From a virus (Duplodnaviria > Caudoviricetes): 64,000 bases of DNA. Within the stretch, counting starts at the first letter, position 1; every line of letters begins with the position of its first letter. Shown here piece after piece: positions 4 through 46,031 of this stretch. Under the pieces are notes generated by a model. That model was not told where the DNA came from and searched no databases. It worked only from the letters and a program-made list of their open reading frames with translations. The translations under genes and the position numbers were made by a program. The stretch covers positions 1 through 64,000 of the IMG/VR virus record IMGVR_UViG_3300033475_000014. One strand, given 5' to 3'.

Positions 4-384
4 TCACTTAATTTCTTTTACCTTTCCCTTATAATCCTTACTTCGTTTCTTCTCGTTACATTCAGAGCATACAGGTGCTAAGTTATTAGGGTCTGTACGA
101 CTCTCTGGGTGTCTTGCTTTAGATAGTTTATGTTCAGCTTCTAGGTAGGGTACCCATTTACCACATAGATAGCAGGTGTAGTATCCTTCGTGGTTAGGTT
201 TCTGGGTTTTCTTCCATTTAGCTACGGCTGAGGCTGTTTTCTTACCCTGCTTACCAATCCTATTAATTGGTTTAGATGGTTTGGCTTTACTCCTTTCCTT
301 TTGGCATTTAGCACATCTTGTTTGGGCCGAGTTCCATATGATGATAGAACGGCCACAGGACTTACACATCTTTTGTGTTGGCAT
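4..384 (-). CDS. HNH endonuclease-like protein at the NinG position
   Basis: CxxC pairs, then CYLCG...EHKLSK...NNLAPVCSECN HNH-like motif; SD AAGGAGG upstream. Confidence 0.7.
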   Translation of the reverse strand: MPTQKMCKSCGRSIIIWNSAQTRCAKCQKERSKAKPSKPINRIGKQGKKTASAVAKWKKTQKPNHEGYYTCYLCGKWVPYLEAEHKLSKARHPESRTDPNNLAPVCSECNEKKRSKDYKGKVKEIK

Positions 385-411
385 GTTCCTCCTTTTGTGA
401 ACTTTTACGGT

Positions 412-681
412 TGAGTATGTGAGGCAAGGATCTGACGAGATGGGTTTTCAGTATCGGTAATTATACCGTGCCTGGGTTCTCTCCCGCACCAGACGAATAT
501 GTCGCCTCAATATACTCGTATAGTCACCTTGCATGATACGCGCCGTTTTGACTTGCACTTATGCTTGCCTAGGCAGTGGTCACGTTCCTTATGGGATGGA
601 CACTTCTAATCCAACCCACGTATCTCTCCAGCCACATTAGTTCTGTGATAGCGTCTATCTATTCCGCCACTCACATACTCA
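412..681 (-). ncRNA. tRNA-like structured RNA, family A copy 1 (270 nt)
   Basis: 12-bp closing IR (412-423/670-681), Leu-type D arm TGGCGGAATAGATAGACGC, GCAAGG/CCTTGC and ACGAG/CTCGT stems; core shared with 41035-41209. Confidence 0.75.
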
Positions 682-759
682 TTTAGCGAGATAAATCTTT
701 GGGTTCTTATGTTTACCAGCCTGGAAAGCTACTTTATCTCGCCATAAAAATTCACAATA

Positions 760-868
760 GATTGAGTGTATGGTGCTGATAACAAGCAGTTCTAAAGCCA
801 CGGTATCCATGCCCTGTATATACCTCACGATATACACCTACTTGTTACCAGTACTACTACACTCAATC
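760..868 (-). ncRNA. Long-stem RNA, family B copy 1
   Basis: GATTGAGTGTA-G-TAGTACTGGTAACAAG ... CTTGTTATCAGCACCA-TACACTCAATC; homologues at 40873-40977 and 43620-43740. Confidence 0.75.
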
Positions 869-875
869 ACTCAAA

Positions 876-923
876 TTGTTAAAGTGTTGGCGGCCCTCGC
901 ATAGCCGCCAACTGGTTGTTAAA
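876..923 (-). promoter_or_regulatory. boxA-like / hairpin / boxA-like antitermination-type element
   Basis: Minus strand ATTTAACAA (923-916), TTGGCGGC-loop-GCCGCCAA hairpin (911-887), CACTTTAACAATTT (886-873), resembling rrn boxA CTCTTTAACAAT. Confidence 0.5.
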
Positions 924-6217: not shown

Positions 6218-6523
6218 ATGGAAAGGAATATCTATTTAATGGCGGAAAGCATCGGAGAACTAGTTACTAGTAACAAGAAACTAGAAAAACTAGTAACTAG
6301 TAACAAGTTAACTAGTTTACAAATACAAGAAAGAGCTCTGGGCTACGCAGAGGGTCTTACATTGACGGAAGAGGGTAATGACCTAACAGGATGGTATTGT
6401 AAGGCTTTTAGGACAATAGGCGAGGGACGTTACAAGATGTGCGCCGACGCCGCGAGGAAAGGTGATAAACCTATGTCACTATTTGGATGGCTATTAAAGA
6501 GAGAAATGGAAAAGGCGCTGTGA
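6218..6523 (+). CDS. Hypothetical protein, possible replication-associated protein with internal iteron-like repeats
   Basis: ORF; LVTSNK repeat encoded by ACTAGT DNA repeats. Confidence 0.65.
   Translation: MERNIYLMAESIGELVTSNKKLEKLVTSNKLTSLQIQERALGYAEGLTLTEEGNDLTGWYCKAFRTIGEGRYKMCADAARKGDKPMSLFGWLLKREMEKAL
6258..6316. repeat. ACTAGT palindrome cluster / 20-bp direct repeat
   Basis: AACTAGTWACTAGTAACAAG at 6258-6277 and 6288-6307; five ACTAGT copies in total. Confidence 0.85.
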
Positions 6524-9614: not shown

Positions 9615-9899
9615 GTGCGAGGTATGCAAAGAGTTATAACACCTGAACAAGGACGTGTACTCGTAAAACTTGATACATCTGAGTATGGTGAGGTACCAGT
9701 GCCTGAAAAAACCTATGATAGTGTGACAAGCGGTACTATCCTAGCAATCAATGAGAACGATGTAGATTACCAATATTTAGTAGGTCGTAAAGGCTACTGG
9801 AAATTGTACAAAGACGATCTACGTGTAGCGAAGCTCCCTACTGGAGAGAAACTAGCACTTATATTAATTAAAGATATTGATGGGACATCCGAAGAATGA
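9615..9899 (+). CDS. groES: GroES-like co-chaperonin
   Basis: P..GRVLVK...G.ILAI...VG...Y...E.LALI.I.DI pattern; ATGA overlap with groEL. Confidence 0.75.
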   Translation: MRGMQRVITPEQGRVLVKLDTSEYGEVPVPEKTYDSVTSGTILAINENDVDYQYLVGRKGYWKLYKDDLRVAKLPTGEKLALILIKDIDGTSEE

Positions 9900-11419
9900 A
9901 AGCAACCGACATTGTAACTGAGAGAGATGTACTACAGAATAAAATCGGTAGGGCTAGCGAGCAAGTATATAATGTAGCTAAAGCAGCCTATGGCCCAAAA
10001 GCAGGGAATGTTATTGTAGGATTTAAAACAGGCGCTCCACTTCTCTCTAGGGACGGTGTGACCAATATTAAGAGAATTAAACTCGCCGACCCTATCGAAG
10101 ACGATATTGCTAAGGTTATTGTTACCGCTTCTGAGAAAAACAACCAGAAGGTGGGTGATGGTACGACAGCAGTTGTTATACTCTCGCACCATCTTCTACA
10201 GGCCGCTCGTAAGCTTGAGAGCAAGGGAGTGAATCCTATGGAAGTTTCAGAAAAACTCCGCCACGCTGAAAAAACAGTTATTGAATACATTGATTCAGTT
10301 AAGAAGAAAACCACCGAAGAAGACCTTACTAAGGTAGCTACCGTATCATCAGGCGACCCAGAACTAGGCGCAATGATCTCTGATGTACTCCAGGAGGTTG
10401 GCGTAGATGGCGGGGTAATGATTGAGCAATACGAAGGGCTTGGTGTCCATAACGATATTGTTGATGGCTTCTACTTCCCCCGTGGGTATAAAGATACTGC
10501 TCTTATTAACGACCAGTCTTCTAATCAATCTCTCCACAAGGATGTAGCTATTCTTATTTCTAATAAAGTATTCAACACAGAAGTAGAAATCGCCCCCGTC
10601 ATTAATGAGATCGTCCGTGCAGGATATAAAGAACTTATCATCGTGGGTGAGGTGAATAACGCCGCTCTTGAAACACTCTTAATGTCACGCGCTAAAGGAC
10701 TTCTTCTAGCTGTTCCCGTAGACCCTCCCTACACTGTGGGCGGTCGCACTCTATTTTTAGACGATATTGCTATTAAAACAGGTGCAACCGTATATGATGG
10801 GGTTAATTTCTCTGTAGAGAATCATTTAGGGTTCGCTAGTGAAGTTCTAGTAACTGAGCACTCAACTACTATCCTAGAGGGCGACAGTGAAAAAGAGCTT
10901 GTAAAAGACCGTATCAAAAGCCTTAAAGAACAACTCAAAGACGAAGAACACCCACAGGCCATTCAATTCATTAAAGAACGTCTTGCACGCCTTACGGGTA
11001 AAATGGCTATTATACGCGTAGGTGGAGCTATTGAGTTTGAGCGTGAAGAGACTAAGCTACGTGTTCAAGACGCAGTATGCGCTGTACAGTCTGCTATGAA
11101 AGACGGAATCTTGCCAGGGGGTGGCTCTACTCTTGCTCGCGTAAGTGGTACCGAGTTTGACGAAGCGTTTAAACAACCATTTAAAGTTCTCTTCGATAAT
11201 GCAGGTCTTAACCCAGAATCTTACTTAGCCCGTTTAGAAGACGCAGAAGTGTGGCAAGGATTTAATCTCCGAAACATTACAGAGAAACCTGTGGATATGC
11301 TTACAGAAGGCGTTATTGACCCATCTTTGGTTATCACTGAGGTTGTCACTAACGCTGTCGCATTAGTAAGGGGTCTTATTACAGCAAGCGCCGCTTTGCC
11401 TGACCCAGAAAAGGAGTAA
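9896..11419 (+). CDS. groEL: GroEL-like chaperonin (divergent, no GGM tail)
   Basis: YGPKAGNV, RDGVT, VGDGTT, R.ARL.GK.AIIRVGG, RVQDAV.A, GILPGGG, GVIDP motifs. Confidence 0.95.
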   Translation: MKATDIVTERDVLQNKIGRASEQVYNVAKAAYGPKAGNVIVGFKTGAPLLSRDGVTNIKRIKLADPIEDDIAKVIVTASEKNNQKVGDGTTAVVILSHHLLQAARKLESKGVNPMEVSEKLRHAEKTVIEYIDSVKKKTTEEDLTKVATVSSGDPELGAMISDVLQEVGVDGGVMIEQYEGLGVHNDIVDGFYFPRGYKDTALINDQSSNQSLHKDVAILISNKVFNTEVEIAPVINEIVRAGYKELIIVGEVNNAALETLLMSRAKGLLLAVPVDPPYTVGGRTLFLDDIAIKTGATVYDGVNFSVENHLGFASEVLVTEHSTTILEGDSEKELVKDRIKSLKEQLKDEEHPQAIQFIKERLARLTGKMAIIRVGGAIEFEREETKLRVQDAVCAVQSAMKDGILPGGGSTLARVSGTEFDEAFKQPFKVLFDNAGLNPESYLARLEDAEVWQGFNLRNITEKPVDMLTEGVIDPSLVITEVVTNAVALVRGLITASAALPDPEKE

Positions 11420-40003: not shown

Positions 40004-40249
40004 TTACTTAATCTCCTTAGGCTTCTCGACGGTTATCTTAAGAACAGTTTCGTTATACTGGAAGTTTACCCATTGAGATAGCTTCAATGACGTTGACGCG
40101 ATTACTTCATCACGTCTATCATTTGCTTCTCTTACAGCTTCTTTAATAGCGTCATCAAATGCCTGATTGATAGATTGTTTGACTGCACTATCAATACTCT
40201 CTCGTAATGCATCCAAGATGGTGTCATTACTTCCTTTAGATATACTCAT
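40004..40249 (-). CDS. Hypothetical protein
   Basis: ATGA overlap with the NinG-like gene. Confidence 0.65.
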   Translation of the reverse strand: MSISKGSNDTILDALRESIDSAVKQSINQAFDDAIKEAVREANDRRDEVIASTSLKLSQWVNFQYNETVLKITVEKPKEIK

Positions 40250-40623
40250 TTAACCTCTTTTACCTTTCCCTTATAATCCTTAATCAACATTTCCAACTCG
40301 CCATCTGTCCACTTATAAGGAGTTTTCATACTCTCCAAGATGTCGATGGTTTGCTGTCCATATTTTTCAAGCATAAACCTGTAATATCCTGTTAAATTGC
40401 CCTCATCAAACCTATTACAGCTTGAGCATTGGGCGTGTACGTTTCTTTCATCCCACCTAGTCGCCATCCATCTTCGGTTAATAAAGTGGCCAGCATCAGC
40501 GAGTGAGTAGGGTTTTAGGTGTCCGCAAGAACAACATACAAAATGCCCGTCTTTTGAATCCCTCAACCGTATGTATTGAGAAAATATCTTATCTAACTTC
40601 TTAATGAGCTGTTTATTGGCCAC
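40246..40623 (-). CDS. NinG/Rap-like recombination endonuclease
   Basis: LD.IFSQYIRLRD...CCSC...DAGHF..R...TRWDERNVHAQC..CN. Confidence 0.85.
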   Translation of the reverse strand: MANKQLIKKLDKIFSQYIRLRDSKDGHFVCCSCGHLKPYSLADAGHFINRRWMATRWDERNVHAQCSSCNRFDEGNLTGYYRFMLEKYGQQTIDILESMKTPYKWTDGELEMLIKDYKGKVKEVK

Positions 40624-40649
40624 GTCTCTCCTTTTGTGAACTTTTATGG

Positions 40650-40854
40650 TCAGCTAGTAGCAACTAAAACTCCCCAGTCGGTTCGCCGCCGGTTTGTCAC
40701 CGAATACACGGGATTGCTACTAGCTGTATTGAAGTGGCCCGTTGCAGGTACGCCCTTCAATATGGTTGACGAGACAAATCCTGACAGTTACGGGTTTAAA
40801 TCCCAGCTCGTGATGTGTCGCGACACGCAGAGCGAATATCTCCCACTTATCTCG
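40650..40854 (-). ncRNA. Structured RNA C enclosed by the conserved 16-bp stem
   Basis: 13-bp IR 40651-40663/40714-40726, 8-bp IR 40727-40734/40755-40762, ACGAG/CTCGT stem, 12-nt palindrome 40815-40826. Confidence 0.6.
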
Positions 40855-40872
40855 CCATAAAAATTCACAATA

Positions 40873-40977
40873 GATTGAGCGCATGGTGTCGGAAACAAGG
40901 TCATCGAGCCTGCTCGCCGTTCCCTATGGGTTAAAGGTCTACGTCCAGAATCATTTCCGACACTACTACACTCAATC
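40873..40977 (-). ncRNA. Long-stem RNA, family B copy 2
   Basis: GATTGAGTGTA-G-TAGTGTCGGAAA ... TTTCCGACACCA-TGCGCTCAATC; compensatory changes versus B1 and B3. Confidence 0.75.
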
Positions 40978-40984
40978 ATTCAAA

Positions 40985-41026
40985 TTGTTAAGGTATTGGC
41001 GGCCCTCGCATAGCCGCCAACTGGTT
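40985..41026 (-). promoter_or_regulatory. Hairpin plus boxA-like element
   Basis: 31 nt (40996-41026) identical to 887-917; followed by CCTTAACAATTT. Confidence 0.5.
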
Positions 41027-41034
41027 TTCTACTA

Positions 41035-41209
41035 AGGGTGAGGCAAGGATTTGACGAGAGACAGCTCCCACTGTCGTTGCCATCAATATGGGTGGACTTG
41101 TTACTCGTATAGTTACCTTGCATAAGGACCGTCGATGTACCGGCGGACTTGCCATCCATGTCGCTGAGCGTGAATGTAGCTAGCGTCTACCTATTCCGCC
41201 ACTCACCCT
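41035..41209 (-). ncRNA. tRNA-like structured RNA, family A copy 2 (175 nt)
   Basis: AGGGTGAG/CTCACCCT acceptor-like stem, D arm TGGCGGAATAGGTAGACGC, split T arm. Confidence 0.75.
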
Positions 41210-41214
41210 GGTTG

Positions 41215-43619: not shown

Positions 43620-43740
43620 GATTGAGTGTATGGTGCTGATAACAAAGACGGCTTCACAGTCACCTTATGCTTGGTGCATCCGACGGTTGATTCCCCTTAT
43701 CGCATCTTTAGGTTTGCTACCAGCACTATTACACTCAATC
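43620..43740 (-). ncRNA. Long-stem RNA, family B copy 3
   Basis: GATTGAGTGTA-A-TAGTGCTGGTAGCAAA ... TTTGTTATCAGCACCA-TACACTCAATC. Confidence 0.75.
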
Positions 43741-44011: not shown

Positions 44012-44037
44012 ATATCAATCTGCAATTGGTACATCCA
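44012..44037. repeat. 26-bp exact direct repeat, copy 1
   Basis: ATATCAATCTGCAATTGGTACATCCA, also at 44482-44507. Confidence 0.95.
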
Positions 44038-44157: not shown

Positions 44158-44198
44158 GTTTACAAAACAGCTGCTCTAACCAGCTGAGCTAAAGCGGC
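44158..44198 (-). pseudogene. 5' half of tRNA-Thr(UGU); att-like site
   Basis: GCCGCTTTAGCTCAGCTGGTTAGAGCAGCTGTTTTGTAAAC; tRNA similarity stops 2 nt past the anticodon loop. Confidence 0.85.
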
Positions 44199-44207
44199 AC
44201 TTACGCT

Positions 44208-44447: not shown

Positions 44448-44483
44448 ATTGACCTTAGTCCCCTTCTTTGCTATGATATAAAT

Positions 44484-44534
44484 ATCAATCTGCAATTGGT
44501 ACATCCAGCCTCGTCATGAGGGCTGGTATTTTTT
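44484..44534 (+). ncRNA. Candidate ~50-nt antisense sRNA of phage B
   Basis: TTGACC-17-TATGAT promoter (44449-44477) with extended TG; repeat copy 2 forms its 5' end; CCAGCC/GGCTGG hairpin plus T6. Confidence 0.7.
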
Positions 44535-45188: not shown

Positions 45189-46031
45189 ATGTTGCTATCT
45201 GAAGCGATAAGCGAGTTTATTAGATATAAGGTCGTGCGCCGTGGTTCTACCCGCGATACTGAGATTACCTACCGAAGCACTATGAATGGGTTCCTTAAGT
45301 GTGTCGGGGACATTCAAGTAGAAGATTTAACAATTTACACAATAGATTCTTATGCCGATGAGCTATCTCTTAAAGGATACATGCCTAAAACATATCATAA
45401 CAAGATGGCTACTGTTAGAAGCTTTGTAAGATTCCTCTATGCTAAGGACCTTACTAACATACGACCAGAATCTGTAGAACTCCCTAAGTCCGTAAGTCCC
45501 GAGGCTAACTTCCTCTCCCCTGCCGAACAAGAGGTACTGTTATCTGTTATTAAGAAGCCACGTGATCTCGCTATTGTGCGGGTGATGATAGCAAGTGGTG
45601 CCCGAGTGTCAGAACTTACTAATCTGAAATATGACGACTTCTACATTGACTCGATCGTTATCCAGCACGGTAAGGGCGGGAAATCTCGTCCTACTTTTTT
45701 AACTGAACGAGCTGCAGAGAGTTTACAAAACTACCTAAAAACTAAACGAAGAACAGAGTACTTGTTTACAAATAGTTTTGGCGAGAAGCTATCGCGCCAG
45801 TATGTAGCAAGGATAGTCTCACAGTACGCCTCTGACGCTGGTATCGGTAAGAAAGTGACCCCTCATACACTGAGGCACTCATTTGCGACGAATATGCTGC
45901 AGAACGGTGCCCGGGTAGAAATAGTCCAGCCGTTAATGGGGCATGCAAATATTAGGACCACGCTTATATATGCGCACTTCACTAACAATTATCTTAAAGA
46001 AGAGTACCAGAAGTACGCAAGCAAGGCTTAA
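45189..46031 (+). CDS. int: Tyrosine recombinase/integrase (XerC/D-like, no arm-binding domain)
   Basis: GARVSEL, GKGGK.R, HTLRHSFAT, MGHANIRTT.IY; SD AAGGAG. Confidence 0.95.
   Translation: MLLSEAISEFIRYKVVRRGSTRDTEITYRSTMNGFLKCVGDIQVEDLTIYTIDSYADELSLKGYMPKTYHNKMATVRSFVRFLYAKDLTNIRPESVELPKSVSPEANFLSPAEQEVLLSVIKKPRDLAIVRVMIASGARVSELTNLKYDDFYIDSIVIQHGKGGKSRPTFLTERAAESLQNYLKTKRRTEYLFTNSFGEKLSRQYVARIVSQYASDAGIGKKVTPHTLRHSFATNMLQNGARVEIVQPLMGHANIRTTLIYAHFTNNYLKEEYQKYASKA

Follow-up and report, generated by a model that had tools for sequence, protein, structure and literature searches.

Precursors of rRNA are processed by RNase III, which cuts the stalks of rRNA operons, and the same enzyme acts at sites in the early mRNA of phage T7, where processing of this type can affect neighbouring cistrons. 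Phage T4 has its species 1 and 2 (rnaC/rnaD), tRNA-related stable RNAs that are co-transcribed and presumably processed, and to which we liken the tRNA-shaped element described below as RNA A. A long stem that presents a tRNA-like domain is found in the YrlA-type Y RNAs (RF02553) of bacteria and phages, in which the 5' and 3' ends form the stem (PMC4201824). The idealised substrate of Escherichia coli RNase III is a duplex of 22 bp, equal to two A-helical turns (PMC3867540), and tRNA-like candidates are mentioned in a 2023 catalogue of viral candidate RNAs (PMC10690425).

The window analysed here is the first 64 kb of an IMG/VR virus record of 76,769 bp, and the majority of its genes lie on the minus strand. 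At two loci within it the same 16-bp stem can form on that strand around different contents, immediately ahead of a nuclease gene. The initial annotation of this DNA had seen in the arrangement a reusable carrier stem that releases its cargo and might couple processing to translation of the nuclease. Our own reading, to which we give an even chance, is that a modular leader RNA of tRNA-derived parts has the 16-bp stem as its outer closing helix, and that this stem serves both as a stalk of the RNase III type and, through its arms, as homology for exchange. The stem probably has the role of a processing stalk, and cleavage is the weakest link of the overall reading.

The repeated stem and its two leaders

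On the minus strand, which is the gene-sense strand, TTGTGAATTTTTATGG pairs with CCRTAAAAGTTCACAA at 757-742/410-395 and again at 40870-40855/40649-40634. All 16 positions are paired at each locus, with two G.U pairs in locus 1 and one in locus 2, and the continuous duplex (bracket S, with arms S5' and S3') reaches 18 bp if one mismatch is allowed. In these respects the initial annotation was exact: the arm pair is present at both loci, the two wobbles of locus 1 are as described, and at both the 3' arm abuts AAGGAG and the start of a nuclease gene (Table 1). When the window was scanned for the 16-mer with up to three mismatches, five matches were obtained (the four arms and one unrelated sequence with three mismatches) against 0.73 expected, a count that none of 100 shuffled windows reached; the 22-nt string formed by the 3' arm and the SD occurs twice against 0.00 expected, and among inverted repeats spanning up to 450 nt, the locus-2 pair ranks first in the whole window. 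A single 16-bp repeat of such a kind is not very improbable in 64 kb, and chance is excluded because the same pair of arms recurs, not because one such repeat exists.

Ahead of both nuclease genes lies an ORF-free stretch of about 600 nt, made up of helices with conserved bases and variable tips. Both leaders sit between genes on the same strand, and no promoter or terminator was predicted on the minus strand within either of them. Read in the sense direction, locus 1 consists of the hairpin H, the stem-wrapped module B1 and the bracket, which holds the hairpin h1 and the tRNA-shaped RNA A1; the latter is composed of a 12-bp closing stem, a D-arm, an insert (V1), the core GCAAGGTGACTATACGAGTA, a second insert (V2) and CAAATCCTTGC. 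Locus 2 opens with a second tRNA-shaped copy, RNA A2, which is followed by H, by B2 and by the bracket, here holding h1, h2 and h3. The two cargos had at first been described as unrelated, that of locus 2 being treated as one RNA under the name RNA C. Their contents do differ, but they are not wholly unrelated, since both start with the base of h1 (GCGAGATAA...TTRTCTCG) directly after the 5' arm, and RNA C is better described as three hairpins than as one RNA. A nuclease gene does stand behind both brackets, as had been noted, but the two belong to different families. A group I intron reading of the leaders was rejected, since each flanking ORF is an intact gene that has a stop, an SD and a start of its own, and since there are no intron core elements and no Rfam match.

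Table 1. Positions of the leader modules and nuclease genes in the window, and of the joints at which related contigs depart from it
Feature	Positions	Strand	Remarks
HNH endonuclease gene (PF01844) behind bracket 1	4..384	-	Last 37 nt (4-40) common to the NinG gene of locus 2 (40246-40282)
S3', 3' arm of locus 1, CCGTAAAAGTTCACAA	395..410	-	Followed by SD AAGGAGG and ATG at 384
RNA A1, tRNA-shaped	412..681	-	Model R1, 104.5 bits, E 6.5e-26; outside training set
h1 hairpin, first arm in bracket 1	687..741	-	Base CGAGATAAA/TTTATCTCG common to locus 2, L010 and L220; contig joint at 687
S5', 5' arm of locus 1, TTGTGAATTTTTATGG	742..757	-	Paired with 395-410, mean probability 0.92
B1, stem-wrapped module, 2 nt upstream of S5'	760..868	-	Closed by GATTGAGTGTA/TACACTCAATC; interior replaced in other contigs
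H hairpin, TTGGCGGC...GCCGCCAA, upstream of B1	887..911	-	Locus-2 copy at 40996-41020
NinG/Rap-type nuclease gene (PF05766) behind bracket 2	40246..40623	-	Profile match
S3', 3' arm of locus 2, CCATAAAAGTTCACAA	40634..40649	-	Followed by AAGGAGA and GTG at 40623
Cargo of bracket 2 (RNA C): h1, h2 (ATTGAAGGGC.../...GCCACTTCAAT), h3 (AGCTAGTAGCAA/TTGCTACTAGCT)	40650..40854	-	h2 and h3 recur in L009 and L010 with other tips
S5', 5' arm of locus 2, TTGTGAATTTTTATGG	40855..40870	-	Pattern scan and inverted-repeat ranking
B2	40873..40977	-	Closing stem of B1 with two G.U pairs; different interior
RNA A2, second tRNA-shaped copy, outside bracket	41031..41213	-	Model R1, 108.8 bits; closing stem only 8 bp
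Third B module	43620..43740	-	Precedes Erf recombinase gene
Joint, bracket cargo replaced	411 to 687, 734 or 741		199 and 202 other letters at two of the three joints
Joint, h1 cleanly absent	678 to 742		S5' fused to the RNA A stem, as in L009
Joint, B interior replaced	777 to 846		Replaced by 82 letters
Joint, nuclease ORF replaced	40 to 385		Replaced by 341 letters, the exact length of the locus-2 NinG interior

Two further observations concern modules outside the bracket. The B stem is a second reusable wrapper, consisting of the closing strands given in Table 1 and an inner covarying helix, with three different interiors in the window and at least two further kinds among metagenome contigs; in the related contig L009 (8870-8985, minus strand) the B stem encloses a tRNA-shaped cargo whose T-arm is canonical (GCAAG-TTCGAGT-CTTGC). 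RNA A2 lies between two copies of AACCAG (41213-41208 and 41026-41021) and, when compared with L009, RNA A2 together with 15 nt looks like a discrete insertion flanked by an AACCAG direct repeat.

Related loci and the exchange of modules

Both arms were located in four further distinct metagenomic phage contigs, L009, L010 (=L219), L218 and L220, by scans for the exact patterns and by one scan guided by protein similarity. The six loci have five cargo compositions between them, built from RNA A, h1, h2 and h3 and, in one case, an ORF. Locus 1 of the window (W1) carries h1 and RNA A; locus 2 (W2) and L010 carry h1, h2 and h3; L009 and L218 carry RNA A, h2 and h3; and L220 carries h1, the 5' half of h2 and a 115-codon HNH_3 homing-endonuclease ORF (PF13392; 3932-4279, minus strand), which takes the place of half of h2 and all of h3. 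The presence of this ORF in the bracket suggests that free-standing homing endonucleases use the RNA cluster as a landing site. The exact patterns returned only one narrow lineage from the viral, metagenome and genome collections, and in other 16-17-mer matches to the bracket arms the partner arm is missing. The sequence that follows the HNH gene in L220 was sought at the other end of the record, as would be expected of a circular molecule, and was not found there.

The notion of a reusable carrier stem around different cargos is borne out by these loci, both arms being kept in all six with changing contents, and by contigs from four DNA runs in which the cargo is replaced at the inner edges of the stem or a few bases from them. 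A survey of homologous loci had been proposed in the initial annotation, and in it both strands proved to be conserved at every locus, never one strand alone, and further cargo types came to light.

The bracket is present in the MFE structures of the whole leaders (616 and 591 nt). In five loci its pairs have a mean probability of 0.92-0.97, and its contribution to stability amounts to 8-16 kcal/mol (11-16 in the two loci of the window). In L220, where the bracket spans the translated 115-codon ORF, the pair probability falls to 0.60, so that a strict structural role is hard to maintain there. Three substitutions are seen in S: one makes position 8 a U.G pair in all loci, and the other two are A>G changes, one in the locus-1 S3' and one in the L220 S5'. 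All three give G.U on the sense strand and would give A.C mismatches on the opposite strand. The neighbouring B stem contributes two more G.U pairs (W2) and one compensatory change of G-C to A-U (L009). Taking S and B together, five of five single-sided changes fall on the G.U side, for which the probability by chance is about 0.03; these comparisons offer modest but consistent evidence for selection on a sense-strand RNA helix. Among relatives the arms are 96-98% identical, compared with 91-95% for neighbouring coding DNA, and because they are only slightly better conserved than the flanking genes, their constancy could be plain recent ancestry. The arms are thus conserved flanks and not exceptional islands, and what stands out is the replacement of blocks between them.

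For the mapping of such replacements, contigs from four independent soil/rhizosphere DNA runs were compared with positions 1-2500 of the window, and those syntenic with the flanks of locus 1 were used. The joints (Table 1) lie at, or a few bases from, the inner edges of conserved helices, and one loose contig end at 386 reads the start of NinG. The HNH and NinG/Rap proteins share only 34% identity over 47 aa; the 37-nt 3' tail of both gene families encodes KDYKGKVKE(I/V)K and the SD of the next gene. L009 and L218 have identical RNA regions but a NinG and an HNH gene, respectively, the switch falling within AAAGGAGGAAC[A/G]TG, and the swap is seen in both phage backgrounds (L009 compared with L218, and contigs on locus-1 flanks). 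The HNH and NinG/Rap genes behave as alternative cassettes between a conserved 22-nt leader and the 37-nt 3' tail, the leader bases between S3' and the start codon (385-394 in locus 1, 40624-40633 in locus 2) being conserved. The abutment of the stem on the RBS is better explained by this exchange, for which the 3' arm and the SD form the conserved 5' flank. In L175 a 57%-identical HNH gene lacks the upstream non-coding region, and the RNA is therefore not tied to the HNH protein family.

Between 1-9.6 kb and 9.6-64 kb of the window no protein similarity was found, only RNA modules being in common, which indicates that the modules move between otherwise unrelated phage backgrounds; for the same reason, the record may itself join two phage genomes. 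Two perfect 26-bp direct repeats, 470 bp apart (44012-44037 and 44482-44507), flank an apparent 5' part of a tRNA (about 44160-44205, minus strand; possibly Thr, anticodon UGU), at which ARAGORN calls none. A tyrosine integrase gene (45189-46031, plus strand) adjoins the repeats, and repeats and integrase together look like an att region in the middle of the record. The window also contains a gene for a GroEL-like chaperonin of 507 aa (9896-11419, plus strand; phrog_5725, E 1e-98), on the strand opposite to most other genes, and a perfect 15-nt inverted repeat (6014-6028/6109-6123) with an 80-nt spacer, near which lies a 20-nt near-palindromic repeat (6258-6309).

With exchange so prominent, it may be asked whether the locus is an evolutionary junction only, in which arms, leader and gene tail are stretches used in recombination and the helix forms without any processing or regulatory role. 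Breakpoints at the edges of every conserved block (B arms, leader, 37-nt gene tail), and not of S alone, accord with such a junction, as do arms barely more conserved than the flanking genes, a bracket that can hold an ORF, and the horizontal exchange implied by two regions that share modules but no protein similarity. We nevertheless consider it rather unlikely that this is all there is to the stem, since the five single-sided changes in S and B, all to sense-strand G.U, and the one compensatory change point to selection on RNA pairing, since long closing stems are a covarying trait of RNA A throughout its family, and since homology for recombination need not be an inverted repeat.

RNA A and the probable derivation of the bracket

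The 20-nt core of RNA A, GCAAGGTRACTATACGAGTA, was found in 44 viral contigs and in five bacterial/MAG contigs, the bacterial/MAG carriers including Salipiger, Saccharibacteria, Gracilibacteria and Aquaspirillum. The 5' part corresponds to the D-arm of a class II tRNA (GTGGCGGAATAGRTAGACGC), a motif present in more than 114 viral contigs; the 20-nt core, given above for RNA A1 as GCAAGGTGACTATACGAGTA, is invariant, a hairpin is inserted in the T-loop region, and the anticodon arm is absent. A covariance model (R1) and an alignment were made from 31 sequences, the locus-1 copy standing outside the training set. In the closing stem 12 of 12 pairs covary, and 95% of cells are paired in the 31 members, compared with 37-48% when the partner strand is slid. 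The remaining helices are a 3-bp D stem, an invariant GCAAGG/CCTTGC stem and a CGAG/CTCG stem, and of the two highly variable inserts one occupies the place of the anticodon arm and the other lies in the T-loop region. Both copies in the window match R1 over its full length, that is, with closing stem, D-arm, GCAAGG/CCTTGC and CGAG/CTCG stems (scores in Table 1). In 100 loci chosen for the D-arm motif R1 gave 103 matches, at least one of which is an ordinary tRNA-Leu.

Searches of the window against Rfam 15 gave no match at the gathering score, and for both leaders only chance-level matches at E<=10; a search of 13 other RNA A loci likewise gave no match, and ARAGORN reported no tRNA or tmRNA in the window or its relatives. 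Taken as sequence comparisons, these results indicate that RNA A is a widespread phage RNA family absent from Rfam 15. Some RNA A relatives adjoin phage tRNA genes, and most copies outside these loci have no SD-bearing ORF within 200 nt. A conserved protein partner was sought among RNA A loci with a closing stem of at least 7 bp, by all-against-all BLASTP of 634 neighbouring ORFs, in which no family was common to more than three loci. Strings like TTCTTTGAAA(A/G)CTGGATA occur in the closing stems or linkers of four RNA A loci (L199, L184, L202 and L200) and resemble what we take to be the spacers of Firmicutes rRNA operons; mimicry of a processing signal may be offered as a lead, by analogy.

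The length of the closing stem across the family has a median of 22 bp (IQR 18-24), compared with 4 bp for mismatched partners. The sequence of the stem varies freely across the wider family, so that nothing demands the particular sequence of S. In the lineage of the window, RNA A has a closing stem of its own of only 8-12 bp (12 in locus 1). In L009, S5' passes unbroken into the 5' strand of this stem, in locus 1 a single base lies between S3' and its 3' strand, and the 16-bp bracket and an inner stem of 9-12 bp (or h1) together amount to 25-28 bp, a length usual for the family, with a break in one strand. On this arrangement of sequences, the bracket is best read as the distal half of a split RNA A closing stem, with extra hairpins lodged between the halves. 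On the same reading W2 and L010 lost RNA A from the bracket but retained the bracket as their outer helix.

A helix of this kind might act uncut, as a structural clamp that isolates the folding of the cargo from the flanking mRNA and blocks exonucleases. Such a clamp would account for the high predicted stability (8-16 kcal/mol) and pair probability of the bracket whatever its cargo, for the very different inserts that it tolerates, and for a length of 16 bp, below the classical RNase III optimum. Few pairs would suffice for that purpose, however, and the related closing stems cluster at 22 bp; moreover, perfect duplexes of about 16 bp in bacterial transcripts are usual targets of RNase III. 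An uncleaved clamp thus seems to us improbable.

Possible role of the stem and relation to described systems

The sequences themselves establish the pairing, the conservation of the two arms, the sense-strand polarity, the range of cargos and the position of cassette joints at or close to the stem edges. The reading that we prefer, of a processing stalk whose arms double as exchange homology, goes further and may be set out as follows. A minus-strand RNA helix would close a multi-arm non-coding domain just upstream of the nuclease cistron, and this domain would be part of an early polycistronic transcript, the leader presumably being co-transcribed with the flanking genes. The enclosed arms would be tRNA-derived or hairpin modules, h1, h2 and h3 each having a conserved base and a variable tip, and the continuous stem of about 22 bp that closes RNA A elsewhere would here be split into an inner part of 9-12 bp and the outer 16-bp bracket. 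Host RNase III would cut this duplex of the two-turn class, thereby excising the RNA domain as a discrete stable RNA, and the nuclease mRNA would then begin about 10 nt ahead of its SD. No RNase III gene was found in the record, so that the enzyme would have to come from the host. In the DNA, the arms may act as short conserved homology, as may the leader and the 3' tail of the nuclease gene, at the flanks of which related phages would swap RNA cargos and nuclease cassettes by ordinary homologous recombination. At 16 bp S is shorter than the 22-bp ideal for RNase III, which the median of the related RNA A stems equals. By analogy, the family-wide 22-bp stems and the established biology of RNase III would favour cleavage, whereas the 16-bp length and the L220 ORF argue caution.

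The suggestion in the initial annotation that the stem couples processing to translation of the nuclease, by its formation or its cleavage, finds no support, and we regard such coupling as quite unlikely. It is true that RNase III processing alters the translation of T7 0.3 and lambda N, that the 3' arm ends 1 nt before the SD in six of six loci, and that beyond an A.A mismatch two extra pairs can reach the first bases of the SD in the two loci of the window. But the SD core and the start codon are outside the helix, the extra flanking pairs are not conserved in L010, and one leader serves two unrelated nuclease genes. In silico blocking of S5' had no consistent effect: over the six loci SD accessibility was 0.24-0.81 with S5' free and 0.22-0.57 with it blocked, the means being 0.49 and 0.48, and the effect was opposite in sign between loci. 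An SD-masking operator hairpin of the kind associated with T4 gene 49, e and soc was rejected as well, the SD beginning 1-2 nt beyond the last pair of the stem and its accessibility showing no consistent dependence on the stem at the six loci.

That the inverted repeats act in DNA, either as the ends of a mobile element or as a site that the adjacent homing endonuclease targets or has left as its footprint, is very unlikely. In favour of such an element, HNH genes are found beside the bracket and, in L220, also within it, cargo is gained and lost as blocks, and RNA A2 sits insertion-like between two AACCAG copies. Against it, the arms lack a target-site duplication, being bordered by TA/CA at one end and by AA at the other. 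The substitutions, which are G.U in the sense RNA, would be A.C mismatches on the opposite strand and in duplex-extruded DNA. Copies of one element would not be expected to differ in content as these loci do, and NinG, which is not a homing enzyme, stands behind the same arms. A DNA inverted-repeat element of the MITE or attC type was likewise rejected, given the differing flanks, the heterogeneous contents and G.U pairs on the sense strand only.

It is tempting to speculate further that in these soil phages S, B and the long closing stems of RNA A are a small set of fixed wrappers that form a plug-and-play scaffold, in which a dsRNase would release any cargo and recombination would trade cargos. 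The rapidly swapped tRNA-derived cargos would then act in trans as effectors and be subject to diversifying selection; they might, for instance, be decoys for those host enzymes or defences by which the tRNA elbow is read. We put this forward as a doubtful possibility.

If the stem is a processing signal, compact phage genomes would embed exchangeable non-coding RNA genes in their mRNA, one fixed duplex freeing any cargo and at the same time defining the mRNA end of the next gene. Such logic is known for rRNA operons, and we know of no description of it for swappable small RNAs. The finding also gives access to a phage RNA that is very widespread but missing from Rfam 15, and that is carried by phages and prophage-like contigs from distant bacterial phyla. 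The precise cassette boundaries (arms, leader and 37-nt gene tail) amount to ready-made constructs for tests of processing and function, and they illustrate cleanly, in nature, how modules are exchanged through short homologies in mosaic phages.

Several described RNAs share features with RNA A. Of class II tRNAs (Leu/Ser/Tyr) it has the D-arm, its 5' part being GTGGCGGAATAGGTAGACGC with GG in the loop; its CAAATCC and GCAAGG/CCTTGC stem resembles a T-arm, and its closing stem starts in an acceptor-like manner. In contrast to those tRNAs, RNA A has a variable insert of about 30-120 nt in place of the anticodon arm and a hairpin in the T-loop region; its closing stem extends to about 22 bp, and a free CCA end is lacking. 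A canonical tRNA (RF00005) was rejected for the window, in which ARAGORN found 0 tRNA genes, no Rfam match above chance level was obtained even at E<=10 and the anticodon arm is replaced by a variable insert. RNA A differs from T4 species 1 and 2 in having an invariant core of its own, GCAAGGTGACTATACGAGTA, and a closing stem of about 22 bp. Set beside YrlA, RNA A has a tRNA-like part that is not permuted, its acceptor-like stem itself running on into the long stem. Identity with the Y RNAs (RF02553) was rejected, neither the window nor the 13 other RNA A loci having an Rfam match, and no TROVE domain (PF05731) being detected in the 76.8-kb record in a search whose controls were positive.

For the bracket itself the closest counterparts are the stalks of rRNA operons, in which the flanks of a structured RNA likewise pair into a long duplex, there, and presumably here, within a longer transcript, and the enclosed RNA (16S or 23S) can differ. 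The rRNA stalk is longer and imperfect, whereas S consists of 16 perfect or G.U pairs; S encloses 200-350 nt of small tRNA-derived modules, and only 1 nt separates it from the SD of a protein gene. With the early RNase III sites of T7 and the leader of lambda N it would have in common a setting in phage early polycistronic RNA, with related duplex signals repeated between cistrons. Each T7 site, however, is a simple hairpin in which roughly two 10-bp helices stack around an internal loop, and it has no cargo, whereas S closes a multi-arm junction with exchangeable contents. The logic of the locus would be that of rRNA-operon stalks and T7 sites, from which it differs in a helix that closes a junction of swappable small RNAs and abuts a protein gene.
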